Notes under the pieces: generated by a model
The model's input: the letters and a program-made list of their open reading frames with translations, nothing else
The model's database searches: none
What the model was told of the DNA's origin: nothing
Shown: positions 658-45,318 of the stretch, in pieces
Numbering within the stretch: the first letter of the stretch is position 1
How the letters are laid out: each line of letters opens with the position of its first letter
Translations under genes and position numbers: made by a program
NCBI GenBank assembly: GCA_030447525.1
Contig: JAUJOR010000010.1
Span: forward strand, 141,113 to 205,112
Direction: 5' to 3'
Source: Chloroflexota bacterium
GTDB taxonomy: Bacteria > Chloroflexota > UBA11872 > UBA12225
Length of the DNA: 64,000 bases

Positions 658-2391
658 TCAGCGCAGGTACTGCTGCATGGCGTCTTTGCTGGAGTCGAAG
701 ATGGGGGTGTAGTCCCACAGGGTGCCGTTGCGGCGCATCGCCTCCCGGATCATCATACGGGAGGCGATGCTGCGCCGGACGTCCGCCTCGATCCGCTCGA
801 AGTCGAAGCGCTCCGCGATGGCCCCCCGCAGCTCCCGCTCCACGGGGGCGTGCTGAGGCTTTCCGATCAAGTTGTCCCACTCCCCCGGATCGGTCTCCAA
901 GTCGAACAGCTGGGCGTCCACCCCGACCATCAGGTTCAGCTTGAAGCGCCCGCGCCGGACCATAAAGCACGGCACCGGGTTGTCCTCGACGTGCATCTCG
1001 GCGAAGGTCGTCCGGGGGGCCGTGTCCGAGCCGCCGAGCAGGCCCAGCAGGCTCCGGCCATCCAGGGGCAGGCGGGCCTCATCTGGGACGCCGGCCAGGT
1101 CGAGGAACGTCGGCAGCAGGTCGATCAGGTTCACCGGCTGGCGCACCACCGTCCCGGCGTGGGCGTCCCCGGGGAAGCGGGCGATCAAAGGCACGCGGCT
1201 GGAGGGATCATAGAAGATGCGCTTTTGCACCATCCCCTTCTCGCAGAGCATGTCCCCGTGGTCGGAGCTAAAGACCACTACCGTGTCTTCCCACAGGTTG
1301 TGCTCCTGCAGGGTGGCGATCAGCTCGCCCACCTTGCGGTCGATATACGTGATCAGGGCGTAGTAGGCCCGCCGCACGCGGTACAGGCTCTCCGGGCTGC
1401 GCAGCTCCTCCTGGAAGTGGCGCACGCCGTGGTTGGCGTTGAGCCAGCGGTCCATCGCCGAGTAGCGAGATTCCAGGTCTTCCGGGAAGTGGGGGAGGGC
1501 GATCTCCTCCCCTTCGTAGAGGTCCCACACATCCTGGGGTGGCCAGAACGGCTCGTGCGGGTGGTGGTAGGAGACGCACAGGAACCAGGGCGCAGGGCGG
1601 CCCCCCGCGCCGGAGGCGTGCTGGCGCTCGGCCGCGCCCTCCTCGGCGCCCAGCGGGCTCTGCCCCAGCTGGCTCTGCTCGCCGTCCGGCCCGGCTCCCC
1701 CGCGCTGCCCGGCTCCCGGCCGGGCGGCCGGCGTCGGACGCCCCCAGCGGCGCTCCGCCATCCCCTTGACTGCCCCCTGGGCGCGGAGATACTCCAGGGC
1801 GCGGAAGTGGGTCTCCTCGTCGTAGCTGAGGTGGTGGTGCCAGCGCCCGACGTGGACGTTGGAGCCGACGTAGTTCCCGGCGTGGCGCCCACGCCCCCGC
1901 TCCGGGCTAAACGCCGCCGGGTCGCGGGCGAGCGCCCAGGGGGAGCGATTGTCCAGCATGTTGAACTCTTCGGCGTAGATGTCCGTGGTCAGCCGGCGCC
2001 GGAAGCCGTGCAGCTGGTCCGGCCCCACGAAGTGCATCTTGCCGGAGAGGACGCAGTCGTAGCCGGCGTTGGTCAAGTAGTGACCGACGGAGGGGATGTC
2101 CGCGGCGAAGAGGGCGGCGTTGTCGTAGACGCGGTTGGTCGAGGTGTACTGGCCGCTGACCAGGCAGGCACGGGCCGGGGCGCACAGGGGCGAGGGGGAG
2201 TAGGCGGCGTCGAAACGCACTCCCCGGCGCACGAGCGCGTCCAGGTTCGGCGTCCGCACCACCGGATGCCCATAGGCGCCGGTGAGGGTGGCCACCAGCT
2301 CGTCGGCCATGATCAGCAGGATGTTGGGGGCGCCCGGAGCGGCCAGGGCGCCGGGGACGGTGGGATGGGACGCTTCCATCACGTGCTGCAC
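658..2391 (-). CDS. Sulfatase (arylsulfatase / choline-sulfatase-like) with an internal low-complexity Gly/Ala/Pro insertion
   Basis: 577-aa ORF with NILLIMADE, SPLCAPARACLVSGQY (CxPxR) and a C-terminal VVFSSDHGDMLCEKG sulfatase core. The GTG start is preceded by GGAG. Confidence 0.85.
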   Translation of the reverse strand: MQHVMEASHPTVPGALAAPGAPNILLIMADELVATLTGAYGHPVVRTPNLDALVRRGVRFDAAYSPSPLCAPARACLVSGQYTSTNRVYDNAALFAADIPSVGHYLTNAGYDCVLSGKMHFVGPDQLHGFRRRLTTDIYAEEFNMLDNRSPWALARDPAAFSPERGRGRHAGNYVGSNVHVGRWHHHLSYDEETHFRALEYLRAQGAVKGMAERRWGRPTPAARPGAGQRGGAGPDGEQSQLGQSPLGAEEGAAERQHASGAGGRPAPWFLCVSYHHPHEPFWPPQDVWDLYEGEEIALPHFPEDLESRYSAMDRWLNANHGVRHFQEELRSPESLYRVRRAYYALITYIDRKVGELIATLQEHNLWEDTVVVFSSDHGDMLCEKGMVQKRIFYDPSSRVPLIARFPGDAHAGTVVRQPVNLIDLLPTFLDLAGVPDEARLPLDGRSLLGLLGGSDTAPRTTFAEMHVEDNPVPCFMVRRGRFKLNLMVGVDAQLFDLETDPGEWDNLIGKPQHAPVERELRGAIAERFDFERIEADVRRSIASRMMIREAMRRNGTLWDYTPIFDSSKDAMQQYLR

Positions 2392-19281: not shown

Positions 19282-19386
19282 TCACCGCACGGGGTCTGCT
19301 CTGGGAGACCTCGCGGCGCAGACGGAATGGAACCTGCCAAGGTGGAGACACAGACGCATGGGGGGGTGTCCGGTTGGACTGACATT

Positions 19387-20640
19387 ATGGCCCCACGGAA
19401 CGGTGAACACCGGGGTAGCCGGCATGGGGCCTTCATGTTCGCTACGGGAATCGAGTGCAGCTACCCCGTCATTGCGAAGGATGGAAGGTCGCACCGGCAG
19501 GATTCGCTGGAGAAGGGCGGCCACTACCGGTATTGGCGCGAGGACCTGCGCCTCGTCCGCGAGGAGCTGGGGCTCACCTACCTGCGCTACGGCACGCCGC
19601 TGCACCGCGTGTTCATTGGTCCCGGCCGCTACGACTGGGCCTTCACAGACGACGTACTTGCAGAGATGGAGCGGCTGGGCATCGTGCCCATCGTGGACCT
19701 GTGCCACTTCGGGCTGCCGGACTGGCTGGGCAACAGCTTCCAGAACCCGGACGTGCCCCGCCACCTGGCGGAGTACGCCCGCGCGTTTGCCCGGCGGTTT
19801 CCCCGGGTGCACCTCTACACACCGGTGAACGAGATCTACGTCTGCGCCAAGTTCTCCGGCCTGACCGGCTGGTGGAACGAGCGCCTGGCGAGCGAGCGCG
19901 GCTTCGTCACCGCGCTCAAGCACCTGTGCCTCGCCTCCCTGGACATGATGGAGCAGATCCTGGCGGTGCGGCCGGACGCCGTCTTCGTCCAGAGCGAATC
20001 CAGCGAGCAGTTCCACCGCTCCTGCCCCTCACCGGAAGCCGGCGAGCTCACCGCCTTCGAGAACGAGCGGCGCTTCCTGGCGCTGGACGCGCTCTATGCG
20101 CGGCCGCTCAGCGCCCGCATGGAGCGCCACGTCCTGGAACACGGCGTCACGCGCGCCGACCTGGACCGCTTCATGAACAACACGCTGGGCGAGCGCTGCA
20201 TCATGGGCAACGACTACTACGCGACCAACGAGCACATGGTCATGAGCGACCTGTCCATCCGCGCGGCCGGGGAGGTCTTCGGCTGGTACCTGGTGACACG
20301 CCAGTACTACGCGCGCTACCGCCGGCCGGTGATGCACACCGAGACCAACACCCTCAACTGCAGCACGGACCCATCGGACTGGCTGTGGAAGCAGTGGCAC
20401 AACGTGCAGCACATGCGCAGCGAGGGCGTGCCGGTCCTGGGCTTCACCTGGTACTCGCTGACGGACCAGGTGGACTGGGACAGCGCCCTGCGCGAGGACA
20501 ACGGCACCGTCAACGAGATCGGGTTATTCGACCTGGACCGCAAGATCCGGCCCGTCGGGCGCGAGTACCGCGAGCTGGTGCGCCTCTTCGGCGCGGTTCC
20601 GCTTGTGCCCAAAGCGCCATTCCTGGGAGCAGGTTTGTGA
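19387..20640 (+). CDS. GH1-like (family 1 glycosylhydrolase-related) protein of the FMFATGIE subgroup
   Basis: The family N-terminus AFMFATGIECSYP is present with a TIM-barrel-like remainder. An alternative start is the ATG at 19435. The stop TGA overlaps the next gene's GTG start (GTGA). Confidence 0.55.
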   Translation: MAPRNGEHRGSRHGAFMFATGIECSYPVIAKDGRSHRQDSLEKGGHYRYWREDLRLVREELGLTYLRYGTPLHRVFIGPGRYDWAFTDDVLAEMERLGIVPIVDLCHFGLPDWLGNSFQNPDVPRHLAEYARAFARRFPRVHLYTPVNEIYVCAKFSGLTGWWNERLASERGFVTALKHLCLASLDMMEQILAVRPDAVFVQSESSEQFHRSCPSPEAGELTAFENERRFLALDALYARPLSARMERHVLEHGVTRADLDRFMNNTLGERCIMGNDYYATNEHMVMSDLSIRAAGEVFGWYLVTRQYYARYRRPVMHTETNTLNCSTDPSDWLWKQWHNVQHMRSEGVPVLGFTWYSLTDQVDWDSALREDNGTVNEIGLFDLDRKIRPVGREYRELVRLFGAVPLVPKAPFLGAGL

Positions 20641-27571: not shown

Positions 27572-29274
27572 GGGGCCTGTTGCCAAACTCTGGCCGGACC
27601 GGCCGAGGTCTGAGTAGGATGGTGGCTCCCTGTTCGAGGTGGGGCACGATGTTGGGCCGTAAGGAATTCACGCCGAAGCGCTTCTACGAGTTCTCGCTAG
27701 AAGCGCAGGTCCCGAGCGACCACTTGCTGCGCGCATCGGGGCGCGCTCGACCTCAGCTTTGTGCGGGCGGCTGACGGCGCGGTTCTACAGCCACACCGGC
27801 CGGCCGGGGGTCGATCCGGTGGTGCTGTTCAAGCTGATGCTGCTCGGGTACCTCTACGGCATCACGTCGGAGCGGCGGCTGGCCGAGGAGGCGCGCCTGC
27901 ACCTGGCCTTCCGCTGGTTCTTGGGGTACGACCTCGACGAGACGCCGCCGGACCACTCGATGCTGTCCAAGGCGCGGGCGCGCTTCGGCCTGCCCGTGTA
28001 CCAGGCGGCTTTCACCGAGGTGGTGCGCAGTGCGAGCGGGCCGGCCTGGTGCGGGGCGACGTCCTCTACGTGGACAGCACGCTGGTCAAGGCCAATGCCA
28101 GTCTTGGGTCGGCCGGCGCGCGGGCGCTGCTCACTCAGCTGCCGAGCGCGGCCGGGTACGTCGCGACGGTGTGGCAGGAGAATCCCGTCTCCGATCCCAC
28201 GCCGCCAGCGGCCCTCCCGGCGAGGGGGAGCAGCCGGCGCCGGACTCGGCCGGTGGCCTCACGGCGGCGCGCGCGCGCGCCCGTCGCTGCACGTGGCCGG
28301 TCCGGAGGACGTGCCCAACGGGGACCAGGGGCCGGTGAACGCCTTGGTGACCAGTCGCACCGATCCCGACGCGGGGCTGGTCAAGCGCGAGGGGGGTCCC
28401 CTACGCCTTCTATTACAAGGCGCACGTCGGCGTGGACGGCGGGCGGGCGCGTCTCATCACCGCGCTGGACGTGACTCCGGGCGAGGTTGCCGACGAGCAC
28501 CTGCTGGACCGGCTGCTCAAGGAGCATCGAGGCACGACCGGGCGTACGGTGGCCGAAGTGGTGGCGGATACCAAGTACGGGACCTACGCCAACTACGTGG
28601 CGCTGGAGCAGCAGGGCATCCGGGCGAGCATCCCGCCCCACAGCACCATGAGCGACCGGGGTGACTACTCTGCCGACCGCTTCGTGTACGAGTTCGCCGC
28701 CGATCGCTAATCGCTATCGGTGTCCCACCGGGCGTGGCACCCTCACCCGCCAGGGCCTCCTCGCGCACTGCCGGGGCGGCCGGTGGCCTGATCTACCGCG
28801 GGCGGCCGAAGGTCTGCGGGGCGTGCCCGGTCAAGGCGCAGTGCTGCGGCCCGGCGGCCGCCCGCACCCTCGTGCGCCCGGACGATGGGGGACTGCGCGA
28901 CCGAGTCGTCGCCTATCTCCGCACGCCACCCGCCAAGCGCAGCCGGCGCGCCGCGCGTACTGGGTCGAGACGGCCAACGCCGAACTGAATGGACCGTCAC
29001 GGGCTGCGGCGGCGCAGTGTCGGGGGCGAGACAAGGTGCTGATCCAGGCGCTGGGCGCGCCATCGCGTACGACGTCAAGAAGCTGGCCCAACGGCGCGCC
29101 CCCAGCCCGGCCATGGGGGTGCGCGTTGGGCCCCTCCCCCTTCTCAAGCGGGCCTGTCCCCGGTTCGAGCCTCCGGTCCCGGCCCAGCGGGCCGTTCCCG
29201 TCGCGTGCACGGGGCGCGCGTACCCCGCACCGTGCTCCTCCTGACCACCATACCCGACTTTGGCAACAGGCCCC
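27572..29274 (+). mobile_element. IS1182-family insertion sequence, copy B (plus orientation), transposase frameshifted
   Basis: The 1703-bp element has the same terminal repeats and internal sequence as copy A but in inverted orientation. Its indels differ from copy A (for example DLDETPPDHSMLSKARARFG reads through here). Confidence 0.8.
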
Positions 29275-29425
29275 AAGGAAGCACTTAGTGGGTCACGTTG
29301 CATTTAACTGGCGATGACCTGACCTGGTGAGCAAACCATTTATCTGCGGGTGGTGATTATATACTTGACGCAGTAGGAAACCTGTGAGACAATGTACTGG
29401 AACAAGAGTCCTAAGGTTGCCTACG

Positions 29426-30413
29426 ATGCCGAAGGCGAAGCCGGTTGATCCGCTCGAACTGACCACCAGCAGCATCGCGAAGTTCTTCTCTACGGAAGAG
29501 GACGCGTGGCTGATGGTGGAGCGGCTGCGCTGGCCTACGGGCACGGTCTGCCCGCACTGCGGCGTGATCGGCAATGCGACCTACCTCACGCCGAAGTCCG
29601 GCTATCGGACGACGCGGGCGGGCAACACGTCCTACCGTCGCGTATGGCAGTGCCGTGAGCGGGAATGCGGGCAACAGTTCAGCGTGCTCGTGAACACGGT
29701 GATGGAAGACACCAAGATCCCGGTGAGCAAGTGGCTGCTGGCGATGCACATGCTGTCCGCCGGCAAGAACGGCGTCTCCGCCCACGAGCTGCACCGGACG
29801 CTCGGCATCACCTACAAGAGCGCGTGGTTCATGGCCCACCGCATCCGCTACGCGATGGCGGAACCGGCGCGCGTCCTGTTGGGCGGCGTCGTAGAGGCCG
29901 ACGAGACCTACGTCGGCGGGCGCATCAAGCGGGCGCACGGTACCCCTAAGTCAAACAAGACTCCCGTCGTGACGCTGGTGAGCCGCGACGGCGAGGCGCG
30001 CTCCCAAGTCATGCACGCCGTGACGGGCGCGAACATCGGGCGGGTGCTCACGGAGCACGTTGCGCCGAGTGCCACGCTGATGACCGATGAGGCTTCCTTA
30101 TAGAGCCGGGTCGCGGGTTCGCCGGCCACGAGACGGTCAACCACAGCGCCGACGAGTATGTACGCGGGAGCGCCTACACCAACACCGTCGAAGGGTTCTT
30201 CAGCCAGCTGAAGCGCAGCATCGACGGGACGCACCACCACGTCAGCGAGTGGCACCTACACCGCTACTTGGCCGAATTTGACTTCCGCTACAATGCGCGC
30301 AAGATCAAGGACGGCGAGCGCACGGAACGTGCCTTTCAACAGGTGGCTGGAAAGCGGTTGATGTACCGGGACTCGTTGGGCGCCGCCGGATCGCCGCTGT
30401 CACGGTAGCGGCG
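29426..30413 (+). pseudogene. IS1595/ISXO2-like transposase with a single frameshift near 30100
   Basis: The N-terminal Zn-ribbon is WPTGTVCPHCGV...WQCRERECGQQF, followed by VEADETYVGG. After LMTDEASL there is a stop, and the protein continues in the +2 frame as FAGHETVNHSADEYVRGSAYTNTVEGFFSQLKRSIDGTHHHVSEWHLHRYLAEFDFRYNARK. Confidence 0.7.
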
Positions 30414-30428
30414 GGGGAGTGGACGCGC

Positions 30429-30635
30429 ATGGCGAAGCAAATCGGGCTGCATTTGGAGGGGGGCATGATATCTGCCCAGGTCTACCACCAGAAGGTGGGG
30501 GATTTCCTCGACATGCTCCGTGCCATAGACCGGAACGTTACCGAGGATATGGCTCCTGAATCCGATGCCCAGACCTCTATTACGTGGCTCGTGGAGAACG
30601 TGAGGAAGGGCAGCCTCGATCTGGCGCTCCAATGA
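30429..30635 (+). CDS. Hypothetical small protein, passenger of the IS1595-like element
   Basis: 68-aa ORF with no recognisable family. It overlaps the next ORF by a few nucleotides. Confidence 0.25.
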   Translation: MAKQIGLHLEGGMISAQVYHQKVGDFLDMLRAIDRNVTEDMAPESDAQTSITWLVENVRKGSLDLALQ

Positions 30636-30639
30636 CGGC

Positions 30640-31173
30640 GTGCTGGCGGCAGCCGTTGTCACTCCGCAAAAGCGCATTGTGCTCACCGACGACGTGAGAA
30701 CGAACCTGAACCGGTTCCTCCGTCCGGTGTTCTCTCACTATGGCTCCATTGAGGGCATCCTAGAGATGGTTTCCGTCGCCGGTGGCCCGCATTTCACTAT
30801 CCGTGATCGATTGAGCGGGCGGTCTATCCGATGCACAGTCCAGCAGGGCCGCGCGCGGGAAGTCGCCGGATTCTTGGAGCAGCGGGTCAGCGTAACCGGC
30901 CGCGTGCGAACTAACGAACTTGGTGGCGTGGTCAACGTGACGATGGAGGAAATTGAGCCGATCTCTCGTTCGAGGAAGCGGTTAAGCGGCTGCTCCAGGC
31001 GCCGCCCGTCTCGAACGAGGAACTGCTGGAAAAGACACGCCGCCCCCGGCGCAAGAATGCCGATCCGCGTCCGAACTAGCCCCCTCTGGTACTGTGTCAA
31101 GTATATAATCACCAGCCAACACGCTGCAGGCGGCCCTGGCGTTGATCATCCCGGCCCGCAAGTCGCAGTTTGA
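30640..31173 (+). CDS. Hypothetical protein, passenger of the IS1595-like element; the 3' end is uncertain
   Basis: 177-aa ORF whose last about 20 codons run through the right inverted repeat. It may form one product with the 30429 ORF after frameshift or coupling. Confidence 0.25.
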   Translation: MLAAAVVTPQKRIVLTDDVRTNLNRFLRPVFSHYGSIEGILEMVSVAGGPHFTIRDRLSGRSIRCTVQQGRAREVAGFLEQRVSVTGRVRTNELGGVVNVTMEEIEPISRSRKRLSGCSRRRPSRTRNCWKRHAAPGARMPIRVRTSPLWYCVKYIITSQHAAGGPGVDHPGPQVAV

Positions 31174-31411
31174 TGCCTGGACGAAGATCGCACCGGGCAA
31201 GAACCTCAAGAGCGCGCTACCCACCGACGTCGCCCGGCCGGACCCGGGCGCGGGGTGGCCCAGGGCCGCCGAGGTCAGCGCCGCGTCAATCCCATCATGC
31301 AGAATCTCTTCGATAAGATAAGAAGGAGATCTCGGTGCCGGATGCCCTCAAGCAGGCCCAGGACGCGAAGGTGGGCATCCTCGGCCCGGCGGCGGGCAAG
31401 TAGCGGGGGAG
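31114..31411 (+). pseudogene. C-terminal remnant of a sugar ABC SBP gene truncated by the IS insertions
   Basis: SBP-tail motifs in two frames (TLQAALALIIPARKSQFDAWTKIAPGKNLKSALP, then VPDALKQAQDAKVGILGPAAGK with a stop). There is no 5' part. Confidence 0.4.
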
Positions 31412-33103
31412 ATGCGCCTGCTGATAACGGGTGGTCAGAGCATGCTGGCGGGGGCCCTGGCCGACACGCTCGCCGGGGAGCACGGTGTACGACTCGTCGC
31501 TACCGAACACGCCGCCCTCGACGTCGCGCCCGGCGACCATGAGCTGCTGCGCGGCGATCTACGGGACTCCGGCTTCGCCCAGCGCGCGGTGGAGGGGGTC
31601 GACGCCATTCTGCACCTGGCGCCGCTGTGGTCGGGGCTCCCGCCGGACACAGCGGACGAGGTGCGGATCGATTGCGCCACGCGCGGGACGTACGTCCTGC
31701 TCAACGCCGCCGTCGCGGCCGGGGTGCGGCGAGTGGTGCTCGCCAGCACGCTCGACCTCTTCGCCGCCTACCCCAGCGACTGGTACGTGGGCGAGTCGTG
31801 GCGGCCCCGCCCCACAACCGATGTGACGCAGCTGGCGGCCTCGCTGGCGGAGGCCTCGGCCCGCGAGATCAGCCGGGTCGAGCCGCTGCACACCGTCTGC
31901 CTGCGCCTCGGGGAGGTCGTCGACGACCAGGACGTGGCAGGCACGCCGTACGACCCGCGGTGGCTGCACGTGGCCGACGCGGTACAGGCCTTCCGGCGCG
32001 CGCTGGCGTTCGGACTCGGCTCACGACAGTTCGCCACCACCGGTCCGCCGCTGCACGGCTGGTGGGTCTTCCACATCCCCGGCGGCGGCGCGCGGACGCA
32101 GGTGCCGCTGGCCTGGGCGCGCCACGAGCTGTTCGGGTACGCGCCCCAGCACACCTTCGCCTCTTCTCAAGACCAGATCGCGCCGCAGAACACCGCCCGC
32201 TCCTGGGGCGCCGCGGGCGCTCCTGACTCCTCGGCCACGCCGCCTCACGTGACGCGAGGTGTACCTCGCAAGACGACCGCGTCCCGTCCTATCCGCCGTG
32301 TCGTGGTCTTCGGCGCGGGCGGGCCGCTGGCCGCGGCCACGACGCCGCTGCTGACCGCTTCATACACGCTGCGGGCGACCGACCTGCGGTCGCTGCACGC
32401 CATCGCCGCTGACCCCAGGACGGCGGCGCCCGGGCGGCCGGTGCCGCCACTCCTGGCGCCACCGCACGAGATGCGCCAGGTGGACGTGACCGATCCGGCG
32501 CAGGTCATGGCGGCGTGCGCCGGGATGGACGCCATCGTGAACTGCTCGGTGGTGCGCCCCCACCCGGTGAACGCCTTTCTGGTCAACACCATCGGCGCGT
32601 ACAACATCGCCCGCGCCGCCGTGGCGCACGACATCCGGCGGGTGGTGCAGACGGGGCCGCAGCAGGTGACGATGGACCGCCCCGGCGGGTACTGGTGGGA
32701 CTTCGACGTGCCAGACGACGCGCCGGCGCGCCCGGGATCGCTGCTCTACAGCCACAGCAAGTACCTGGGGCAGGAGATCCTACGGATCTTCGCCGAGAAC
32801 CACGGCCTGGAGGTCCCGGTGCTGCTCTTCTCGCGCTTCGTAGATCCCGAGGTGAACCGTCCCAACATTGACGGCATGTTCCCGATGACGGTGTCGTGGC
32901 GGGACGCCGCCCTCGCCATCCGCTGCGCCTTGGAGGTGCCATCGCTGCCGGCGCCGTGCGAGGTGTTCCACATCCTGGCCGATCTACTGCACGGGAAGTA
33001 CCGCAACGAGAAGGCCAAACGGCTGCTGGGCTGGCAGCCCCGGGACACGCTGGAGCACCTCTGGGGCCGCCGTCACACCCTGGAAGAAGAAGCGGCCCGC
33101 TGA
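31412..33103 (+). CDS. Tandem fusion of two NAD-dependent epimerase/dehydratase (extended SDR) domains
   Basis: 563 aa. Domain 1 (MRLLITGGQSMLAGALADTL...) has a Rossmann fold. Domain 2 starts at about aa 290 (RRVVVFGAGGPLAAA...) and has the YxxxK catalytic motif YSHSKYLGQE. The start is preceded by GGGGGAG. Confidence 0.55.
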   Translation: MRLLITGGQSMLAGALADTLAGEHGVRLVATEHAALDVAPGDHELLRGDLRDSGFAQRAVEGVDAILHLAPLWSGLPPDTADEVRIDCATRGTYVLLNAAVAAGVRRVVLASTLDLFAAYPSDWYVGESWRPRPTTDVTQLAASLAEASAREISRVEPLHTVCLRLGEVVDDQDVAGTPYDPRWLHVADAVQAFRRALAFGLGSRQFATTGPPLHGWWVFHIPGGGARTQVPLAWARHELFGYAPQHTFASSQDQIAPQNTARSWGAAGAPDSSATPPHVTRGVPRKTTASRPIRRVVVFGAGGPLAAATTPLLTASYTLRATDLRSLHAIAADPRTAAPGRPVPPLLAPPHEMRQVDVTDPAQVMAACAGMDAIVNCSVVRPHPVNAFLVNTIGAYNIARAAVAHDIRRVVQTGPQQVTMDRPGGYWWDFDVPDDAPARPGSLLYSHSKYLGQEILRIFAENHGLEVPVLLFSRFVDPEVNRPNIDGMFPMTVSWRDAALAIRCALEVPSLPAPCEVFHILADLLHGKYRNEKAKRLLGWQPRDTLEHLWGRRHTLEEEAAR

Positions 33104-33192
33104 CCACCTGGCGCAGCTCTCTGAGTCCCAGAGCGGGGAGGTGCGTATCCTAAGGGCCATCCAGCCGATGCGCTGCGTGGGGAGGAACCGAA

Positions 33193-34533
33193 TTGAGACG
33201 GGGTGATGGCCAGACGATCGCCGAGCCGGCGCGGTCGGTGCCGGTGTACGGGAGCTGCGACGTGCTGGTGGTCGGCGGCGGCCCGGCCGGGTTCGCGGCG
33301 GCGGTGGCCGCCGCCCGCGAGGGGGCGGACGTGGTGCTCATCGAGCGCTACGGCCACCTCCGCGGGCTGGCCACCGGCGGGCTGGTCTTCTGGATCGACC
33401 GCATGACCGACTGGGGCGGCCACCTGGTGGTGGCCGGCATCGGGCAGGAGCTGATGGACCGCTGTGGCCAGGACGCCATCCTGGGACCGCCGCGGGAGCT
33501 GTGGGGGTCCGGCGACAAGGAGGCGGTGGCCTACTGGGGCATCCGCGCCAGCGCCCACCGCGGGGTGGTCACCTGGGCCCCCACCGTCGACCCGGAGCTG
33601 ATGAAGTGCGTCTCCAACGACATGGTGCGCGAGGCCGGCGTGCACACCCTCTTCCACTGCTGGGCCGTCGCCGCCATCCACGACGCCGGGCGCGTCCGGG
33701 GCGCAATCTTCGAGAGCAAGGAGGGGCGCTTCGCCCTGCTGGCGCGGGTGACGATCGACGCCTCGGGCGACGGCGACGTCTTCGCCGCCGCCGGCGCGGA
33801 CTACGAGAGCGACTTCGACAGCCAGACCATCCACGCCCGGGTGAACACCAGCTTCCGCTTCGGCAACGTGGACATGCCTCGCTACCTGGACTTCAAGCTG
33901 AACCAGGCGTCGGAGCACAACGAGCTGCTGCGTCGAGGGGCCGCCGCGGGGGTGGAGCTGCGCGTCCACGCCACGGCCTACGACTCCGTGGCCCTGTTCA
34001 TGACCCCCAAGTTCTCGGGGTACTCGGCGCTCAAGGTGGCCGATCTGACGGCGGTGGAGTTCCGCTCGCGCGACGCCATGCGCCAGGGCCTGGCCTGGTT
34101 CCGCGCCCACGTCCCCGGGTTCGAGCGGGCCTGGATCCTGGACACGGCGCCCCAGGTGGGCACGCGCCACACACGCCGCCTGGCCGGCGTCACGCGGGTG
34201 ACCCTTGACCACTGGCGGGCGAGCGGGCGCTACCCGGACGCCATCGGCCTCTGCCCCGGACTGACGCCCGAGTTCCCGACGCTGGAGATCCCCTACGGCT
34301 GCCTCGTGCCCCAGCGCCTGGACGGCGTCCTGGCCGCCGGGCGGAACCTCTCCGCCGACCCGCCGTCGCACAACCCGCTGCGCGAGGTGCCGGAGTGCTG
34401 GGTGATGGGCCAGGGTGCGGGTCTGGCCGCCGCCCTGGCCGTGCGGAATGACGTCTCCCTGCGCGACGTGCCCATGTCCGAACTCCAGCAGAAGCTCCGC
34501 CGGCAGGGCGCCGTCGTCGACCCGCCGGCCTGA
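33193..34533 (+). CDS. FAD-dependent oxidoreductase (pfam12831-like, typical of polysaccharide-utilisation loci)
   Basis: DVLVVGGGPAGFAAAVAAAREGADVVLIER is a dinucleotide-binding motif. The TTG start is preceded by GGGAGGA. Length is 446 aa. Confidence 0.65.
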   Translation: MRRGDGQTIAEPARSVPVYGSCDVLVVGGGPAGFAAAVAAAREGADVVLIERYGHLRGLATGGLVFWIDRMTDWGGHLVVAGIGQELMDRCGQDAILGPPRELWGSGDKEAVAYWGIRASAHRGVVTWAPTVDPELMKCVSNDMVREAGVHTLFHCWAVAAIHDAGRVRGAIFESKEGRFALLARVTIDASGDGDVFAAAGADYESDFDSQTIHARVNTSFRFGNVDMPRYLDFKLNQASEHNELLRRGAAAGVELRVHATAYDSVALFMTPKFSGYSALKVADLTAVEFRSRDAMRQGLAWFRAHVPGFERAWILDTAPQVGTRHTRRLAGVTRVTLDHWRASGRYPDAIGLCPGLTPEFPTLEIPYGCLVPQRLDGVLAAGRNLSADPPSHNPLREVPECWVMGQGAGLAAALAVRNDVSLRDVPMSELQQKLRRQGAVVDPPA

Positions 34534-34777
34534 CGCGCCGGGGTTTTTGGCCGGTGCCTGGATCGGCCGGTGCCTGGATCACTCAACGTCCCATCGGAAG
34601 GCCACGTCAGTGGCTGTCTTGAGCACCCCGGGCCACGATCTGTAGTACGCTCGAGCCGCTGTCCGCCCGGGCGCTGAAACGGGGAGACCGCGCCGCACGT
34701 GAGCGGCGGGCGACCGGCGCCGCTTGTGGCCGGCGCTGTCCGGGGGCACAATGCCTCAAGAGAGGGGCACCACATCC

Positions 34778-36115
34778 ATGAACCGGATCGAGCAGCAGAT
34801 GAAACGACACCTGAGTCGCCGGAAGGCCATTGGCGGCGCAGCGGCGATGGCGGGCGTTATCGGCGCCGCCTGCACGGGTACGGCCGGCCCGGAATCGAGA
34901 GCGACCGGGAGTGAGACCGAAGCCGGTGAGGTGGAGTGGTCGCAGTGGGGGAGCAACGCCGACTTCGCCATTGCGCAGGCGCAGGTCGACGCCTACAACG
35001 CCACGCGGCCGAAGCTGCCGGTGCGCGCCAACCTCCTCACCGGCAACTACCTCGAGAAGCTGCGGGCCATGGTGTCCGCCGGCAGCCCTCCGGACCTCCA
35101 GCACCACAACTCCGGCCAGTTCGAGGCGCTCTCCGCCACCAAGGCCTTTTTCGACCTGGACCCCCTGATCAAGCGCGACAAGTACCGTCTGGACGACATC
35201 TACCCTGCCTTCCAGGACGGCGTGAAGTTCGGGGGCAAGATGTTCGCCCTGCCCACCACGGGCGCCAACATCCTGCTGTTCTACAACCGCACCCTGTTCG
35301 ACAAGGCCGGCCGGAAGTACCCCACGCCAGAGTGGGGCTGGCGCGACCTGGAGGAGGCGGCACGGGCGCTCACCAACTCCGCCGGCGCCGACCAGACGTG
35401 GGGGTTCCACGTGCGCAACTCCGTCTCCAACTGGGCGTCCACCATCTGGCAAAACGGAGGCGAGATCTGGAACGCCGACATGACTCGGTGCCTGATCAAC
35501 GAGCCGGCCGCGGTGGAGGCGTTGGAGTTCTTCTACGGCCTCAAGACCAGGCACAATGCCTCCCCGCCGCCGGACGTGCTCACGGCCGGCGGGGGCGAGC
35601 GGGGCCTGTTCATGGCCGGCAAGCTGGCCATCAACCCCACCGGGGCCCACCAGCGCTTCGAGTACGTGGCCATCGACGGCTTCCAGTGGGACCTGCAAGT
35701 GCTGCAGCAGGGAAAGAAGCGCACGAACATCCTGTTCACCGACATGGAGGCGATCGACGCCGGCACGACACGCCCGCAAGCAACCTGGGAGTTCCTGAAG
35801 TGGCTCGTGGCCGACCCGGGGCAGGAGATCCGGGCGGACAAGGTGCGGGCCATCCCCTCCAGCCGCAAGTACGTGGAGACGGCGGCCTTCCGCAACAACC
35901 CGGCGGGGAAGAACAACAAGGCTATCGCCGACGACATGCCCCACGGGCGCGTCCCGCCGAACGCCAACTCACTGTTCTTTGAGCTCAACGAGCGCTGGAA
36001 CCCGGAGCTCCTGGCGCTCTACAACGGCACCAGGCCGGCCAAGGCCGTGGCCGAGGCGATGGCGGAGCAGACGAACGCCCTGCTCAAGACGTCAGGGGGC
36101 AAGGCCCTAAAGTAA
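34778..36115 (+). CDS. ABC transporter sugar-binding protein (Tat-lipoprotein)
   Basis: MNRIEQQMKRHLSRRKAIGGAAAMAGVIGAACTG is a Tat/lipobox signal, with AGAGAGGGG as SD. The protein has the family-1 SBP fold. Confidence 0.8.
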   Translation: MNRIEQQMKRHLSRRKAIGGAAAMAGVIGAACTGTAGPESRATGSETEAGEVEWSQWGSNADFAIAQAQVDAYNATRPKLPVRANLLTGNYLEKLRAMVSAGSPPDLQHHNSGQFEALSATKAFFDLDPLIKRDKYRLDDIYPAFQDGVKFGGKMFALPTTGANILLFYNRTLFDKAGRKYPTPEWGWRDLEEAARALTNSAGADQTWGFHVRNSVSNWASTIWQNGGEIWNADMTRCLINEPAAVEALEFFYGLKTRHNASPPPDVLTAGGGERGLFMAGKLAINPTGAHQRFEYVAIDGFQWDLQVLQQGKKRTNILFTDMEAIDAGTTRPQATWEFLKWLVADPGQEIRADKVRAIPSSRKYVETAAFRNNPAGKNNKAIADDMPHGRVPPNANSLFFELNERWNPELLALYNGTRPAKAVAEAMAEQTNALLKTSGGKALK

Positions 36116-36141
36116 GGCCAAGCCGCGCGACCGCGTAGGAA

Positions 36142-37461
36142 ATGCGAGAGGAGTCGAAGTTGACAGACCGCATCATGCACCGCCGGGGGATACTGGGTCT
36201 GCTCGCCAGCGCGCCGATCATCGCCGCCTGCGGCACGGCGGACGGGCCACGGGCACCCACGGCCGCGCGCCGCCCGGCGACTCTGGACTTCCTTCACGCC
36301 GATGGCCCGCCCCAGAAAGAGAAGCTGGAGCGCATCGCCGAGGGCTTCAAGGCCAAGAACGCCGGCTCGCAGATCAATGTCATCTACACGCCGTGGGGCG
36401 AGTTCGAGACCAAGATCGTCGCCTTGCACACCGCCGGCACGCCGCCGGACTTCCACCAGATCGACGACGACGCCGTCCCCTTCTTCGCCATGCGCGACCT
36501 CCTCCTGCCGGCAGACGCGCTCCTGAAGGAGCACGCCATCAACCGCGGCGACTACCACAAGATGATCTGGGACCTGACCACGGTACAGGGCAAGGTGATG
36601 GCCCTCACCCTGGCCCTCAAGCCGCGGGCCTACCTCTACAACCGCGACCTGTTCGACCAGGCGGGCATCAAGGCCCCCACTACCTGGGCGCAGGCCTGGT
36701 CGGCCGACCAGCTGCAAGAGCACGCCCGCAAGCTCACCCAGGGCGACGTGTGGGGCTACATGTGGGACTATTGGATCTGGGACTCCATCCCAGCCATGAA
36801 CGGCGGCGACCATTTCTCGCCGACCTGGACGGAGTACCTCATCCCCCGCTACGCCGACGCCTACCAGTGGATCGCCGACCTGGCCTACAAGCAGCGCGTC
36901 GCCCCGCCGCCGGACGTGCGCCGGCAGCCCGGCGGGGAGCGCCAGATGTTCACCAACGGGAAGCTGGCCATCTGGAACACCACCATCTCGGTGGCCCGGC
37001 AGCTCAACGACGCCAAGGACCTGCGCTGGGACGTCATGCCCGTGGCCAAGCTGCTGCAGAGTGCCAAGGCCGAGGCCAGCCTGTTCACCTTCTCCATGGC
37101 CAAGGCGACCAAAGACCCGGCCGGGACGGCGGCGTTCGCGTCCTACTTCATGACCGACGCGGCGCAGGAGATCATGGCCGAGGGCGGCGACCTGATGCCG
37201 GTGAAGACCAGCGTCCAGAACTCCAAGGCCTTCCTCGATCCGGCCCGGCAGCCGCAGCAGGCCAAGGTGTGGATCGAGTCGCTCGAGCACCAGGGGCGCT
37301 GGCCCTTCCTCTACAACGGCATCGAGCTGCGGGACGAGGTCCGGCCGGCGGTGGACCTGATCTGGAACGGCCAGGCGCAGGCCAAGGAGGCCCTGGAGGG
37401 GGTGCGTCCCAGGATCATGGAGCTGCTCAAGGTCTCCCAAGAAAAGATGAATCGGCGCTGA
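36142..37461 (+). CDS. ABC transporter sugar-binding protein
   Basis: It has a lipoprotein signal (ILGLLASAPIIAACG) and SBP motifs. An alternative TTG start at 36161 has a better SD. Confidence 0.75.
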   Translation: MREESKLTDRIMHRRGILGLLASAPIIAACGTADGPRAPTAARRPATLDFLHADGPPQKEKLERIAEGFKAKNAGSQINVIYTPWGEFETKIVALHTAGTPPDFHQIDDDAVPFFAMRDLLLPADALLKEHAINRGDYHKMIWDLTTVQGKVMALTLALKPRAYLYNRDLFDQAGIKAPTTWAQAWSADQLQEHARKLTQGDVWGYMWDYWIWDSIPAMNGGDHFSPTWTEYLIPRYADAYQWIADLAYKQRVAPPPDVRRQPGGERQMFTNGKLAIWNTTISVARQLNDAKDLRWDVMPVAKLLQSAKAEASLFTFSMAKATKDPAGTAAFASYFMTDAAQEIMAEGGDLMPVKTSVQNSKAFLDPARQPQQAKVWIESLEHQGRWPFLYNGIELRDEVRPAVDLIWNGQAQAKEALEGVRPRIMELLKVSQEKMNRR

Positions 37462-37529
37462 GGCACCCGCCTGACGCCCTGGTCCCTGGTGGACGCACCC
37501 ACCTGAATCCTCCAACGGAGAGTACGGCC

Positions 37530-38705
37530 ATGACAGCGAATGCCCAGTTTCCGGCGCCCTTCTCGTTCGGCACGCCGGCGGAGGTGGTCTTCGGCATGGG
37601 GACGGTGCGCGCCGCCGGCCAGCGCGTAGCCGCCCTCGGCGTGCGCCGGGCGCTCTTCCTGGTCGATCAGGGCGTCCTGGCCGGCGGCCTGACGACGCCG
37701 GTCGAGGACTCCCTGCGGGCCGCCGGTGTGGAGTGGGAGACGTTCGACGGCGTCACCGGCGAGCCGACGGACCGCTCCGTGCAGGCGGCGCTCGACCGCG
37801 CGGACAGCCTCCGCCCGGATGGGATCGTCGCCATGGGGGGCGGCTCGGCGCTGGACACCGCCAAGGCCGTGGCGCTCGTCGGCGCCAACGGCGGGACGGT
37901 GCTGGAGTACCTCAACCGGGAGCGCACGGCCGAGCGGGCGGGTGTCCCCGTTGTGGCCATTCCGACGACGTCGGGCACCGGGGCCGAGGTCACGCCCATC
38001 TCCGTGATCATCGACGTCGACCGGCGCTTCAAAGGGGGCATCTCCGGGCCCCAGCTGATGCCCCGGCTGGCCGTCTGCGATCCCGAGCTGACGCTGGGAC
38101 TCCCTCCCAGCGTGACCGCCAATAGCGGCATCGACGCCCTGACGCACTGCCTGGAGTGCTACGCCAACACCGCCTTCCACCCCTACGCCAAGCTGCTGGC
38201 CCTGGAGGGCGTCCGCGTCATCGGCCGGCACCTGCGCCGCGCCGTGGTCCACGGCGGCGACCCGGCGGCCCGCTGGGGGATGATGTGGGGCGCCAACCTG
38301 GGCGGGCTGTGCATCGCCCGCGCCGGCACCGGGGACGTCCACGCCTTCGCCGGGCCGGTGAGCGGGATGTTCGGCGTGCCCCACGGGCGGGCTAACGCCA
38401 TCCTGCTGCCCCACGTCATGGCCTTCAGCCTGCCCGGGGCGATCGAGCCGTACGCAGACGTGGCAGCGGCGCTCGGCGAGCCCATTGCCGGGCTCTCGCG
38501 GGTCGCCGCCGCCGAGCGGGCGGTGGACGCCGTGCGGCGCCTGATCGCCGACGCTGGCGGGCCCCTGCGCCTCGCCGATTGCGGCGTCCAGGAGGGTGAC
38601 CTGGCCGCGCTCGCCCGCGACGGCTTCGGGCGTGGCAACCGTGCCATCAACCCGCGCGTCGCCACCGAGGAGGACGTCGCCGCCATCTACCGCGCCGCGC
38701 TGTGA
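37530..38705 (+). CDS. Iron-containing alcohol dehydrogenase family protein
   Basis: GGGSALDTAKA and the His-rich metal site (ALTHCLECY, HGRANAILLPHV) are present. The ATG at 37530 is preceded by GGAGAG. It lies inside a spurious longer ORF-track frame. Confidence 0.75.
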   Translation: MTANAQFPAPFSFGTPAEVVFGMGTVRAAGQRVAALGVRRALFLVDQGVLAGGLTTPVEDSLRAAGVEWETFDGVTGEPTDRSVQAALDRADSLRPDGIVAMGGGSALDTAKAVALVGANGGTVLEYLNRERTAERAGVPVVAIPTTSGTGAEVTPISVIIDVDRRFKGGISGPQLMPRLAVCDPELTLGLPPSVTANSGIDALTHCLECYANTAFHPYAKLLALEGVRVIGRHLRRAVVHGGDPAARWGMMWGANLGGLCIARAGTGDVHAFAGPVSGMFGVPHGRANAILLPHVMAFSLPGAIEPYADVAAALGEPIAGLSRVAAAERAVDAVRRLIADAGGPLRLADCGVQEGDLAALARDGFGRGNRAINPRVATEEDVAAIYRAAL

Positions 38706-38707
38706 AC

Positions 38708-38730
38708 GGCGCCACGTGCAATGGCGCTGG
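38708..38730. terminator. Candidate bidirectional stem-loop between the convergent Fe-ADH and SDR genes
   Basis: GGCGCCAcgtgcaaTGGCGCt has a 6-7 bp GC stem. No clear U-tract, as expected in a high-GC genome. Confidence 0.2.
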
Positions 38731-38790
38731 GGCACCCACCTTGAACGGGGGGCTACATCGTCGAGCGCCGCACTGTGAGCGCTGCGCCCT

Positions 38791-39597
38791 TCAACGGCGC
38801 AGCAGCCCACCACCGTCGAAGACGTAGGTGCCGCCGACGGCGAAGCTGGCGTCGTCTGAGCACAAGAACGCGATCGCCCGGGCGAGCTCGACGGCCTCGG
38901 CCGTGCGCCCCAGCCAGCGGGGGTCGAAACGCTCCTCGATGTCCGCCCGCGTCTTGCCCTCCAGGGCCAGACGTTTCTCGGTCAGGCCGGTGTAGACGGC
39001 GCCGGGGCAGACGCAGTTCACGCGGATGCCGTCGGCGACGTAGTCGATGGCCATCTCACGCGAGAGCGTCAGCACCCCACCCTTGGAGGCGGCGTACGGG
39101 GCGTTGTGCTTCAACGGCGTGAAGGCCTGCACCGAGGAGATGTTGACCACGGCCCCGCCGCGGACACGCAGGTGCGGGATGGCGTACTTACTGACCAGGT
39201 ATGTCCCTTTGAGATTGACGCCCAGGACGTGATCCCACTCGTCTTCCTCGGTGCTCTCGACTGTATGGTTGGGCAGCCCGATGCCGGCGGCGTTGACCAG
39301 GATGTCGATCCCGCCGAACGTTTCGCAGGCCGCTTGCGCCAGGCGCTCGGCATCGGCGCGCTTGGACACGTCGACGCGGACGAAGCGGGCGCGGCCACCA
39401 CGCCCCTCGATCCCGGTGACGACCCGCTCCCCGGCTTCCACGGTCCAGTCGCCGATGACGACGGCCGCCCCTTCGACGGCGAACAACTCGGCGGTGGCGC
39501 GGCCGATCCCAGAGGCGCCACCGGTGACGACCGCCACCCGGCCGGCGAACCGCGCCCGTACGCCTGACAGTCCCGACTGTGCCGTTGTCTCGTCCAT
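38791..39597 (-). CDS. SDR-family oxidoreductase
   Basis: It has the cofactor-binding motif VTGGASGIGRA, NAAG, and the catalytic YAASK triad. Confidence 0.8.
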   Translation of the reverse strand: MDETTAQSGLSGVRARFAGRVAVVTGGASGIGRATAELFAVEGAAVVIGDWTVEAGERVVTGIEGRGGRARFVRVDVSKRADAERLAQAACETFGGIDILVNAAGIGLPNHTVESTEEDEWDHVLGVNLKGTYLVSKYAIPHLRVRGGAVVNISSVQAFTPLKHNAPYAASKGGVLTLSREMAIDYVADGIRVNCVCPGAVYTGLTEKRLALEGKTRADIEERFDPRWLGRTAEAVELARAIAFLCSDDASFAVGGTYVFDGGGLLRR

Positions 39598-39874: not shown

Positions 39875-39944
39875 CGTGACAGCCCGTTCAATCCCGGTTA
39901 TTTCGAATGCCGCGCGAAATGGCCAGGCGGAAGGGGACGGCGTC

Positions 39945-40712
39945 GTGCCGCGGGCGCAGACGCGCAGCCTGCAGCGGGGGCTGGCGACGCTGGAGTACGT
40001 GGCGCAGGCGGGCGAGGTCAGCGTGTCGGAGGTGGCGGCGGCGCTGGGGTTGCCCCGCCCCTCGGCCCACATCCTCCTGCGTACCCTGACGGAGGCCGGG
40101 TACCTGCGCCAGGCCCGGCGCCGCGGGCGCTACCGCCCGGACCTGCGCGTGCTACAGGTGGCGCGAGACGTCTTAGCGCGGCTGGCCGTGCGGGAGCGGG
40201 CGGCCCCTCTGCTGCACGAGCTGGCCCAGGCGACGGGGCTCAGCGTCTACCTGGCTGTCCTCGCGCGGGGAGAGGCGATGACGGTAGACCGTGTCGTCCC
40301 CAAGCCCCGCCCGGCGGCGCGGGCGGACATCGGCGTGACCAACCCGGCCTACGCCTCGGCCATGGGCAAAGCGCTCCTGGCGTACCTCCCGCCGGCGGAG
40401 CTGGAGGGCTACCTGACTACGGTGCGCCTGGAGCCGGTGACCGAGCGGACGATCACCTCCGTGGCCGCCCTGCGGCGGGAGCTGGCCCGCGTGCTGGAGC
40501 AAGGCTACGCCCTCAGCGAAGGGGAGCACCGCCCGGGCGTGCGCAGCGTCGCCGCGCCGGTGTTCACCCACACCGGGGAGGCGGTGGCCGCCCTCTGCGC
40601 GCGCCACGACACTCCCGCCAGCGAGCCCCCGCCGGAGGCGCTCATCCGCAGCGTTGTGGAGGCCGCCGAGCGCATCTCGCACACCCTGGGCTACGGCGCC
40701 TTGCTCGAATGA
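39945..40712 (+). CDS. IclR-family transcriptional regulator
   Basis: The N-terminal HTH is SLQRGLATLEYVAQAGEVSVSEVAAALGLPRPSAHILLRTL and the C-terminal domain is the effector-binding domain. The GTG at 39945 is preceded by GAAGGGGA. An alternative GTG lies at 39876. Confidence 0.65.
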   Translation: MPRAQTRSLQRGLATLEYVAQAGEVSVSEVAAALGLPRPSAHILLRTLTEAGYLRQARRRGRYRPDLRVLQVARDVLARLAVRERAAPLLHELAQATGLSVYLAVLARGEAMTVDRVVPKPRPAARADIGVTNPAYASAMGKALLAYLPPAELEGYLTTVRLEPVTERTITSVAALRRELARVLEQGYALSEGEHRPGVRSVAAPVFTHTGEAVAALCARHDTPASEPPPEALIRSVVEAAERISHTLGYGALLE

Positions 40713-45246: not shown

Positions 45247-45318
45247 ATCCACCATACCCTCCTTACGCCGCGAGTAGCGCACGCGCCGGTGCTGCTGTCA
45301 ACCTCTGCCGAGCGGGCG

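Follow-up and report, generated by a model that had tools for sequence, protein, structure and literature searches.

Introduction

Uronate dehydrogenase (Udh; EC 1.1.1.203), represented in the Protein Data Bank (PDB) by 3rft and 3rfv from Agrobacterium tumefaciens, 3ay3 from Chromohalobacter salexigens, and 6mfh, is a short-chain dehydrogenase/reductase (SDR) that takes NAD+ only and whose hexamer consists of three tight dimers, each held together by helices a3 and a4 (PMC5442039). The roles of its b5/b6 motifs, among them the substrate-recognition motif Ser110/Asn111/His112 on strand b5, have been described (numbering of PMC4476818). Azf, a haloarchaeal NAD-dependent glucose-6-phosphate dehydrogenase, is a Udh-like SDR of ~250 amino acids (aa) that oxidises a sugar at its anomeric carbon. 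In the ketoreductases of polyketide synthases (PKSs) and animal fatty acid synthases (FASs), a truncated, non-catalytic N-terminal Rossmann subdomain packs as a pseudo-dimer on the catalytic SDR subdomain. Furthermore, in the malonyl-CoA reductase (MCR) of Roseiflexus (RfxMCR), each catalytic SDR precedes a non-catalytic one without YxxxK or bound cofactor, and Arg1164 of the domain SDR4 contributes to substrate binding by SDR3 (PMC10470521). Here, we describe a gene for a protein of two consecutive SDR domains (hereafter, the fusion) in a 64,000-nucleotide (nt) stretch of DNA from a Chloroflexota bacterium (hereafter, the window; GenBank assembly GCA_030447525.1, contig JAUJOR010000010.1, positions 141,113 to 205,112 of the forward strand). 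What is new is a Udh/Azf-like dehydrogenase turned into a covalent catalytic/non-catalytic pair, a form without a characterised member, while the design itself is known.

Two unequal halves in one chain

The fusion gene and its parts, in window coordinates, are as follows.

31412..33103, + strand: fusion gene, 563 aa plus stop; predicted N-terminal pseudo-SDR, disordered linker and C-terminal catalytic SDR
31412..32173, + strand: N-half, aa 1-254; predicted Rossmann-fold pseudo-enzyme domain, matching PF01370 on its own with E 5.8e-12
32174..32281, + strand: linker, aa 255-290; low complexity, variable length, many alignment gaps
32282..33100, + strand: C-half, aa 291-563; predicted catalytic Udh-like SDR
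32312..32326, + strand: cofactor-binding motif G-A-G-G-P of the C-half, aa 301-305; conserved in homologs
32747..32761, + strand: catalytic motif Y446-S-H-S-K450 of the C-half; aligned with Udh Y136 and K140

Both halves were aligned with Udh, and residues were tallied in 36 homologs. The C-half matched Udh residues 83-233, the YxxxK region included, and its Gly-rich loop was nearly unchanged throughout the family, G301, G303, G304 and P305 being present in 36/36 homologs and A302 in 35/36. The catalytic set was equally constant (Y446 and K450 in 36/36, T414 in 35/36), and D358, N377, C378, G415 and P416 were likewise invariant or nearly so. D324, at the end of strand b2, was found in 36/36 homologs and had no conserved equivalent in the N-half. 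An acidic residue at this position marks a preference for NAD over NADP in SDRs.

The N-half matched Udh residues 4-123 and was confidently modelled with the strand-helix pattern of a Rossmann fold. Its Gly motif reads TGGQSMLA in the window protein; across the homologs T6 (35/36) and G7 (34/36) were kept, the central Gly was Ser in 28/36, and the last Gly was Ala in 11/36, the window protein among them. The position equivalent to the catalytic Tyr (139) was occupied by A, R, S, E, H or T and that equivalent to the catalytic Lys (143) by A, P, V, T or L, with Tyr and Lys in 0/36 each; the window protein has T139 and A143. The N-half retained D49, R51, H68, E147 and R165 in 36/36 homologs and the active-site Ser/Thr, S112, in 35/36, and E128, W130, H186, D189 and H221 were further invariant residues. 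A first-pass annotation, made by a model from the letters of the stretch, had read the second domain as carrying an intact YSHSK motif and the first as partly degenerate, and had left room for the catalytic Tyr and Lys to be missing from the second domain on alignment. The alignment bears out the first two points, and both catalytic residues of the second domain are in place opposite those of Udh.

The two halves also differed in their rate of change. Mean pairwise identity was 0.49 for the N-half and 0.64 for the C-half, which was the more conserved half in 100% of sequence pairs. Conservation by element reached 0.99 in the Gly loop and 0.95 in strand b5 of the C-half, compared to 0.30 in the linker. 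The N-half and C-half share only 26% identity over 135 residues, suggesting that the duplication is old.

Variants of the family point in the same direction. In a subgroup of 450-486 aa (P0135, P0136, P0139 and P0148), the N-half was trimmed and the C-half complete. Standalone C-half-type proteins of ~270 aa with the GAGGP and YxxxK motifs were also found (P0174, P0175, P0186 and P0203, the last of which reads LGAGGP), and these may represent the ancestral, presumably homodimeric, form. A split version was present on contig L090 (ENA ERZ4232226 NODE_135525, positions 219-1327), where a 238-aa N-half gene ends in TGA and is followed after 8 nt by the ATG of a C-half gene, which begins MRVCFYGAGGPVAAA and has neither the long linker nor the insertion of consensus KPQSPGAPLP present in the C-half of the fusion. 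Because L090 is a short contig of low coverage (3x), it is only suggestive of a real split form of the family. Split-gene and standalone C-half versions were rare, and one contig with the standalone form (L091) was only 1.1 kb long. The asymmetry in residues, the faster change of the N-half, and the trimmed, standalone and split variants thus point to the C-half as the enzyme and to the N-half as its pseudo-enzyme partner.

Gene integrity and family distribution

The open reading frame (ORF) of the fusion comprises 563 codons with zero internal stops in the ORF list, and PF01370 (Epimerase) of Pfam matched the protein in two separate stretches; each half still matched when scanned singly (E 1.1e-7 for the C-half). 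In a window of ~70% G+C, the G+C content at third codon positions (GC3) of the ORF was 0.87 and uniformly high along its length in a codon-position analysis, and GC3 values of 0.87-0.95 for the fusion gene, the adjacent flavoprotein gene and the two solute-binding protein (SBP) genes beyond it support coding. The same fusion was readily found in relatives. A search of 5.8 billion proteins from independent NCBI, JGI, ENA and Logan assemblies returned >120 protein clusters, mostly from Chloroflexota, with the fusion at full length (500-590 aa, ~98% query coverage, 47-90% identity). When one genome per species was searched, 230 loci encoded a relative of the fusion, and in the best 80 of these 230 the match spanned query residues ~1-554. 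The hosts included closed chromosomes of Caldilineaceae and other Chloroflexota, Chthonomonadaceae (Armatimonadota), Dormibacterota, and one Rubrobacter metagenome-assembled genome (MAG). When 1.84 billion representatives were searched exhaustively with a profile, 333 clusters reached E <= 1e-30, and full-length fusions predominated among the top matches.

Since the same full-length fusion is kept across independent sources, the ORF is a genuine conserved single gene, as the first-pass annotation had described it, and not the product of a frameshift. The same annotation had kept open two genes separated by an unrecognised stop or frameshift. An artefact of this kind would be two adjacent SDR genes joined by a sequencing or assembly frameshift or a lost stop codon. 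The two-gene version on the low-coverage metagenome contig L090 and the low complexity and poor conservation of the linker would fit such an error. However, an uninterrupted fusion in so many independent clusters and species-representative loci, closed chromosomes among them, the predominance of fusions among the top full-length profile matches, and GC3 values that are even over the ORF make this explanation extremely improbable.

Because the N-terminal sequence MR(I/L)LITGG was conserved in homologs, the start giving 563 aa is preferred over a 553-aa version. A 100%-identical database protein (P0001) has 553 aa and apparently begins at Met11 (31442 instead of 31412); judging from the motifs, strand b1 and the Gly loop are probably missing from this gene call. 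Two fusion paralogs in one genome were common among the species-representative genomes, and in many Chloroflexota the members of a pair lie far apart on the chromosome (L014/L017, L018/L019, L023/L024, L075/L077 and others).

Comparison with Udh, Azf and tandem SDRs

An AlphaFold2 (AF2) model of the fusion, built from the 36 homologs, had a mean predicted local distance difference test score (pLDDT) of 86 and a predicted template-modelling score (pTM) of 0.88, with disorder (pLDDT <50) confined to residues 255-285. The C-half showed the alternating strand-helix pattern of a Rossmann fold at pLDDT >90, with its Gly-rich loop present. As the chain consists of two ~260-residue domains with a floppy linker, a pTM of 0.88 points to a defined mutual orientation of the domains in the model. 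Together with the tight a3/a4 dimer of Udh (PMC5442039) and the split two-gene version, this makes an intramolecular pseudo-dimer, the arrangement named in the first-pass annotation, the most likely design of the protein.

The best PDB sequence matches of the fusion were all Udh, each on both halves (6mfh, E 8.7e-24; 3ay3; 3rft), and so were the best fold matches, with template-modelling scores (TM-scores) normalised to target of 0.69-0.75 at 22-27% identity. Udh is a single-domain Rossmann SDR equal in size to each half, with a YxxxK motif that aligns with Y446 and K450 of the C-half. It differs from the fusion in being a homohexamer of ~267-aa chains, whereas the fusion is a 563-aa covalent tandem with one copy that appears dead. 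Compared to Udh, the C-half also has an insertion of ~17 residues after b2 (residues ~331-347, consensus KPQSPGAPLP) and one of four residues after b5. The top NCBIfam match of the fusion, and of its N-half, was Azf (NF041293), in two stretches that take in both halves, with E 2.4e-17; at 63 bits it lay far under the 400-bit cut-off, and Azf, unlike the fusion, has a single domain.

The substrate-binding residues of Udh were replaced. The b5 segment S110-S111-N112-H113 of Udh corresponds to T414-G415-P416-Q-Q-V-T-M-D in the C-half and to S112-T113-L114-D115 in the N-half. Arg174 of Udh (PDB numbering, after b6), which we take to bind the uronate carboxylate, aligns with G488 of the C-half (Gly in 29/36 homologs) in a gapped loop that makes the placement approximate. 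Because these residues are not conserved, the fusion is probably not a strict uronate dehydrogenase, while it retains both fold and catalytic residues of the sugar C1-dehydrogenase type.

The arrangement of the two domains has parallels outside the Udh group. In the ketoreductases of PKSs and FASs, as in the fusion, the structural half comes first, is the more degenerate and is trimmable, but these are SDRs of the classical type within a megasynthase that act on acyl chains bound to a carrier protein, whereas the fusion is free-standing, Udh-like and encoded in catabolic neighbourhoods. MCR, also a Chloroflexota enzyme, is built from the tandem pairs SDR1-SDR2 and SDR3-SDR4, in each of which one SDR is catalytic and supported by its non-catalytic partner. 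In contrast to the fusion, with its apparently dead copy at the N-terminus, the catalytic domain comes first in SDR1-2; moreover, MCR acts on a CoA thioester with NADPH and has four domains plus an extra domain, whereas the fusion has two domains and presumably acts on a sugar with NAD. A sequence relationship between the fusion and MCR could not be detected: the PDB matches listed, 60 of 96 by sequence and 50 by fold, included no MCR chain. With two SDR folds per chain and catalytic residues in one, the fusion joins the tandem catalytic/non-catalytic SDRs, which form an architectural class and not a homologous family. The first-pass annotation had called the fused form unusual, a description not supported for a family that is widespread and conserved and has a known counterpart in the tandem catalytic and non-catalytic SDRs of MCR (PMC10470521).

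Substrate class and gene neighbourhoods

Neighbouring genes were counted with tblastn within a radius of 5 kb at 86 loci, which fall into 40 lineages at 70% identity. The families surveyed were as follows.

Enolase-superfamily (MR_MLE) dehydratase: within 5 kb in 11 lineages, adjacent and co-directional in 6
GFO/IDH/MocA oxidoreductase: within 5 kb in 10 lineages, adjacent and co-directional in 2
ATP-binding cassette (ABC) solute-binding protein and permeases: within 5 kb in 8 lineages, adjacent and co-directional in 1
Zinc-dependent alcohol dehydrogenase (Zn-ADH): within 5 kb in 5 lineages, adjacent and co-directional in 2
Xylose-isomerase-like TIM barrel: within 5 kb in 4 lineages, adjacent and co-directional in 2
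DHDPS-type aldolase: within 5 kb in 4 lineages, adjacent and co-directional in 0
HpcH-type aldolase: within 5 kb in 2 lineages, adjacent and co-directional in 0
UxuA-like dehydratase: within 5 kb in 2 lineages, adjacent and co-directional in 1

At least one sugar-acid dehydratase or aldolase was found at 33 loci in 14 lineages. These neighbours make up the toolkit of oxidative, non-phosphorylative sugar catabolism, which fits the oxidation of a free sugar, though the association is only moderate because no neighbour family occurs in more than about one quarter of the lineages.

The first-pass annotation had left the choice between a nucleotide sugar and a free sugar open, and its first option corresponds to a fusion that acts as a nucleotide-sugar epimerase, dehydratase or reductase (GalE, RmlB or RmlD type) in glycan biosynthesis or the salvage of activated sugars. 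The PF01370 matches on both halves carry the name 'NAD dependent epimerase/dehydratase', weak matches to GDP_Man_Dehyd, RmlD_sub_bind and Polysacc_synt_2 were obtained, and database names read 'nucleoside-diphosphate-sugar epimerase'. However, the best equivalog scores of this kind were 28-56 bits against cut-offs of 224-730 (rmlD, 27.8/224; PseB, 28/408), and structure matches to GalE and RmlB were confined to the N-terminal Rossmann part, query positions from ~1-120 to 1-190. Furthermore, each half has ~255-270 aa, the size of Udh, whereas enzymes acting on nucleoside-diphosphate (NDP) sugars have 310-350 aa, and the halves are thus too short to accommodate the NDP-binding C-terminal region. 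The top sequence and fold matches were to Udh, as described above. Catabolic enzymes and transporters made up the recurrent neighbours, which included no glycosyltransferases or nucleotidyltransferases in a survey without a search aimed at either. A role on NDP-sugars is therefore improbable, and of the two substrate classes it is the free sugar that the evidence supports better.

Two observations concern sugar-acid dehydratases and downstream genes. The sugar-acid dehydratase gene nearest to the fusion in the window is an enolase-superfamily gene at 55912-56754 (- strand), the called ORF of which has 280 aa and covers the C-terminal domain only; its top match, galactonate dehydratase, was below cut-off, and the gene may be truncated or its start miscalled. 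At nine loci, all in one lineage, a gene of the Antibiotic_NAT family (aminoglycoside 3-N-acetyltransferase family) lies directly downstream of the fusion.

Proposed scenario for the fusion protein

Considering these results, the explanation that we favour, with a probability of roughly 60%, is that the fusion is an asymmetric covalent Udh/Azf-like pair whose C-half acts as an NAD-dependent dehydrogenase on a free sugar. The family may have arisen by tandem duplication of a Udh/Azf-type short-chain dehydrogenase, or by fusion of two adjacent genes for such enzymes, so that a Udh-like dimer would have been made covalent before one of its active sites decayed. The copies would then have diverged into an asymmetric pair, in which the C-terminal copy, with its GAGGP loop, the Asp of b2, and Thr414-Tyr446-Lys450, would be the enzyme, and the N-terminal copy, which appears to have lost the catalytic Tyr and Lys family-wide, would most likely be a built-in, non-catalytic dimer partner. 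We infer that the N-half packs on the C-half via the helices of the Udh tight dimer to give a covalent pseudo-dimer, in which N-half helices 82-103 and 138-156 and C-half helices 385-405 and 445-464 are predicted to form a four-helix bundle; the N-half may still bind a nucleotide or lend residues to the pocket of the C-half. An ABC system would bring in the substrate, a free sugar or a derivative of one, and the C-half would oxidise one of its hydroxyl groups, most likely the anomeric C1-OH, to give a lactone. The product would feed a route of aldonate dehydratase and aldolase, running from sugar to lactone or aldonate, then to a 2-keto-3-deoxy acid, and finally to pyruvate and an aldehyde.

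Several observations weigh against this scenario. The invariant residues D49, R51, H68, E128, W130, E147, R165, H186, D189 and H221 of the N-half exceed what a passive scaffold might need, and the interface between the domains is read from pTM alone. The loss of the Udh substrate-binding residues from the C-half leaves the substrate and the oxidised carbon unfixed. In addition, the neighbourhoods are heterogeneous, with no partner family above about one quarter of the lineages and with sugar genes absent from the vicinity of some loci, and no enolase-type dehydratase lies near the fusion in the window, the nearest being 23 kb off.

The first of these points would be explained if the N-half bound NAD(H) as a regulatory or sensor domain, in the manner of the atypical SDRs of the NmrA/HSCARG type, or if it supplied substrate-binding residues to the C-half, as SDR4 does in MCR. 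Residues resembling a cofactor site are retained (T6, G7, D49, R51, H68 and S112), seven other positions are invariant (E128, W130, E147, R165, H186, D189 and H221), and Arg1164 of the non-catalytic SDR4 of RfxMCR offers a precedent for such help in substrate binding (PMC10470521). However, Ser replaces the central Gly of the dinucleotide loop in most homologs, the non-catalytic SDR2 of MCR was resolved without cofactor (PMC10470521), parts of the N-half are deleted in some lineages, and standalone C-half-type enzymes exist without any N-half. We thus regard an active N-half as unlikely, though worth keeping in mind, and retain the asymmetric pair with a non-catalytic N-half as the working scenario.

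Most members of the abundant phyla Chloroflexota, Armatimonadota and Dormibacterota are uncultured, and the annotation of carbohydrate catabolism in these groups consists largely of generic labels. The names 'nucleoside-diphosphate-sugar epimerase' and 'NAD-dependent epimerase/dehydratase' are probably wrong on the substrate class of the fusion and hide its pseudo-enzyme half, and recognition of the family as Udh/Azf-like free-sugar dehydrogenases with a dead partner would improve pathway reconstruction in these phyla. The standalone, split and fused forms offer a natural series for the evolution from a homodimeric SDR to an asymmetric pseudo-heterodimer. No established idea is overturned, and an SDR specialist would not be surprised by the architecture of the fusion.

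The flavoprotein neighbour and the proposed sulfatase link

The genes considered in this section are as follows.

33193..34533, + strand: PF12831 flavin adenine dinucleotide (FAD)-dependent oxidoreductase, 446 aa; TTG start preceded by GGGAGGA
658..2391: sulfatase gene, the sole one found in the window
19327..20640: GH1-like gene

The oxidoreductase next to the fusion, assigned to PF12831 in the first-pass annotation, indeed covers positions 1-416 of the 416 in this model (E 1.3e-84, 285.4 bits against a cut-off of 27), and G28, G30, P31 and G33 of its FAD motif V-V-G-G-G-P-A-G are invariant. Its family comprises 4266 homologs at E <= 1e-10, is highly conserved, extends to other phyla and carries generic names only. 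PDB sequence matches were restricted to the FAD-binding N-terminus, NCBIfam gave no match above cut-off for the flavoprotein, and Foldseek with its AF2 model (pLDDT 78) returned only generic two-domain flavoenzymes at TM ~0.4.

The double SDR and the flavoprotein might form a dedicated two-enzyme module acting in sequence on one substrate, for instance a product of a complex or sulfated glycan. Both genes run in the same direction, 89 nt apart, and are laid out in the same way in a 90%-identical relative (L004). They are adjacent again in a ~55%-identical lineage, in reversed order and beside an ABC transporter, with a flavoprotein that is 32% identical there, and two differing gene orders speak against the simple inheritance of one arrangement. 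However, PF12831 was found within 5 kb of the fusion at only 2/86 loci, in 2/40 lineages (tblastn count; carried at L004 and L006). The MAG AVDCRST_MAG77 encodes a 79%-identical flavoprotein (P0281), yet its gene was absent from the surroundings of the 68%-identical fusion (L010) out to 10 kb. Furthermore, the flavoprotein family is far larger than that of the fusion and is present in other phyla, and the nearest sulfatase gene is 29 kb off. A dedicated module is thus doubtful. The functional unit of fusion and flavoprotein proposed in the first-pass annotation does not extend across the family: the flavoprotein is an occasional neighbour, with a possible functional link confined to the lineage of the window, and a conserved SDR-flavoprotein pair was ruled out by its presence in 2/40 lineages only.

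Two related proposals fared no better. PF12831 had been taken as a mark of sulfated-glycan loci, for which no evidence was found in a limited literature search, and the substrate had been linked to neighbouring sulfatases and hydrolases. The sulfatase gene and the GH1-like gene lie 29 kb and 11 kb from the fusion, respectively, separated from it by insertion sequence (IS) remnants and unrelated genes, and the recurrent neighbours counted at the 86 loci in 40 lineages included neither family. The sulfatase link was ruled out by this distance.

A further reading is that the fusions form a class of sugar dehydrogenases, obligately asymmetric and so far unrecognised, in which the dead copy would complete the pocket of the C-half or sense NAD(H). 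In the lineage of the window, the fusion and the uncharacterised PF12831 flavoprotein would then together start a novel catabolic route for a sugar derivative in soil Chloroflexota. A functional role of the N-half in such a class would account for the invariant residues E128, W130, E147, R165, H186, D189 and H221. We consider this reading rather unlikely.

Organisation and remodelling of the locus

The remaining features around the fusion in the window are as follows.

27759..28710: frameshifted transposase gene; DUF772 at 27759-28664, DDE_Tnp_1 fragment at 28432-28710
29384..30103: IS1595-family transposase gene fragment, truncated within the DDE domain (Pfam)
31115..31403, + strand: truncated, frameshifted remnant of an upstream SBP gene; the last ~95 codons are left
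34724..36115, + strand: solute-binding protein 1 (SBP_bac_1; Pfam E 4.3e-24); same position in L004
36142..37461, + strand: solute-binding protein 2 (SBP_bac_1; Pfam E 3.2e-18); syntenic in L004
37530..38705, + strand: iron-containing alcohol dehydrogenase (Fe-ADH), 391 aa, with Fe-ADH and ADH_Fe_C domains; last co-directional gene of the cluster
38791..39597, - strand: classical SDR; matched the 'glucose 1-dehydrogenase' subfamily model at 224 bits (cut-off 215)
39876..40712: IclR-type regulator

The two SBP genes noted after the flavoprotein gene in the first-pass annotation are thus present. The start of Fe-ADH (MTANAQ...) matches that of the gene called in L004, which also has 391 aa. The best NCBIfam matches of Fe-ADH, choline dehydrogenase and lactaldehyde reductase, were both under cut-off, and NCBIfam gave no specific name above cut-off for Fe-ADH or the IclR-type regulator.

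In L004, the genes are ordered cupin, SBP, SBP, fusion, PF12831, SBP, SBP and Fe-ADH, followed by the SDR on the other strand. Synteny between the window and L004 in a blastn comparison starts at 31115, inside the former upstream SBP gene, the remnant of which corresponds in tblastn to residues 361-420 and 427-454 of the L004 SBP in two frames, at 87-90% identity, with the frameshift near 31295-31317. Since synteny starts inside an SBP gene and transposase remnants lie upstream, the 5' part of the cluster (the cupin gene, one SBP gene and most of the second) has been lost and replaced in an IS-associated rearrangement, and the promoter of the cluster was probably replaced as well. An ORF at 30640-31173 spans the synteny breakpoint and has no Pfam match.

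A consensus scan of 30500..38900 found no sigma-70-like promoter. A weak terminator-like hairpin at 34525..34541, recognised as a consensus match only, consists of a 5-bp GC stem followed by GGTTTTTGG and overlaps the flavoprotein stop codon, where it might set the SBP genes apart from the fusion and flavoprotein genes.

At least seven SBP_bac_1-type genes are present in the 64 kb (2680-4311, 34724-36115, 36142-37461, 41080-41877, 42123-43529, 43936-45282 and 53050-54588), of which that at 41080-41877 is apparently truncated (265 aa). No ABC permease gene was found among the ORFs annotated near the fusion, and the SBPs of the window may be orphan or decaying. A 902-aa ORF at 50289-52997 (- strand) has a GC3 of 0.90, a strong sign of coding, and no Pfam match at E <= 1e-5; it is flanked by a GFO/IDH/MocA gene at 48190-49335 and the SBP gene at 53050-54588, with a malate synthase gene beyond at 46548-48152.

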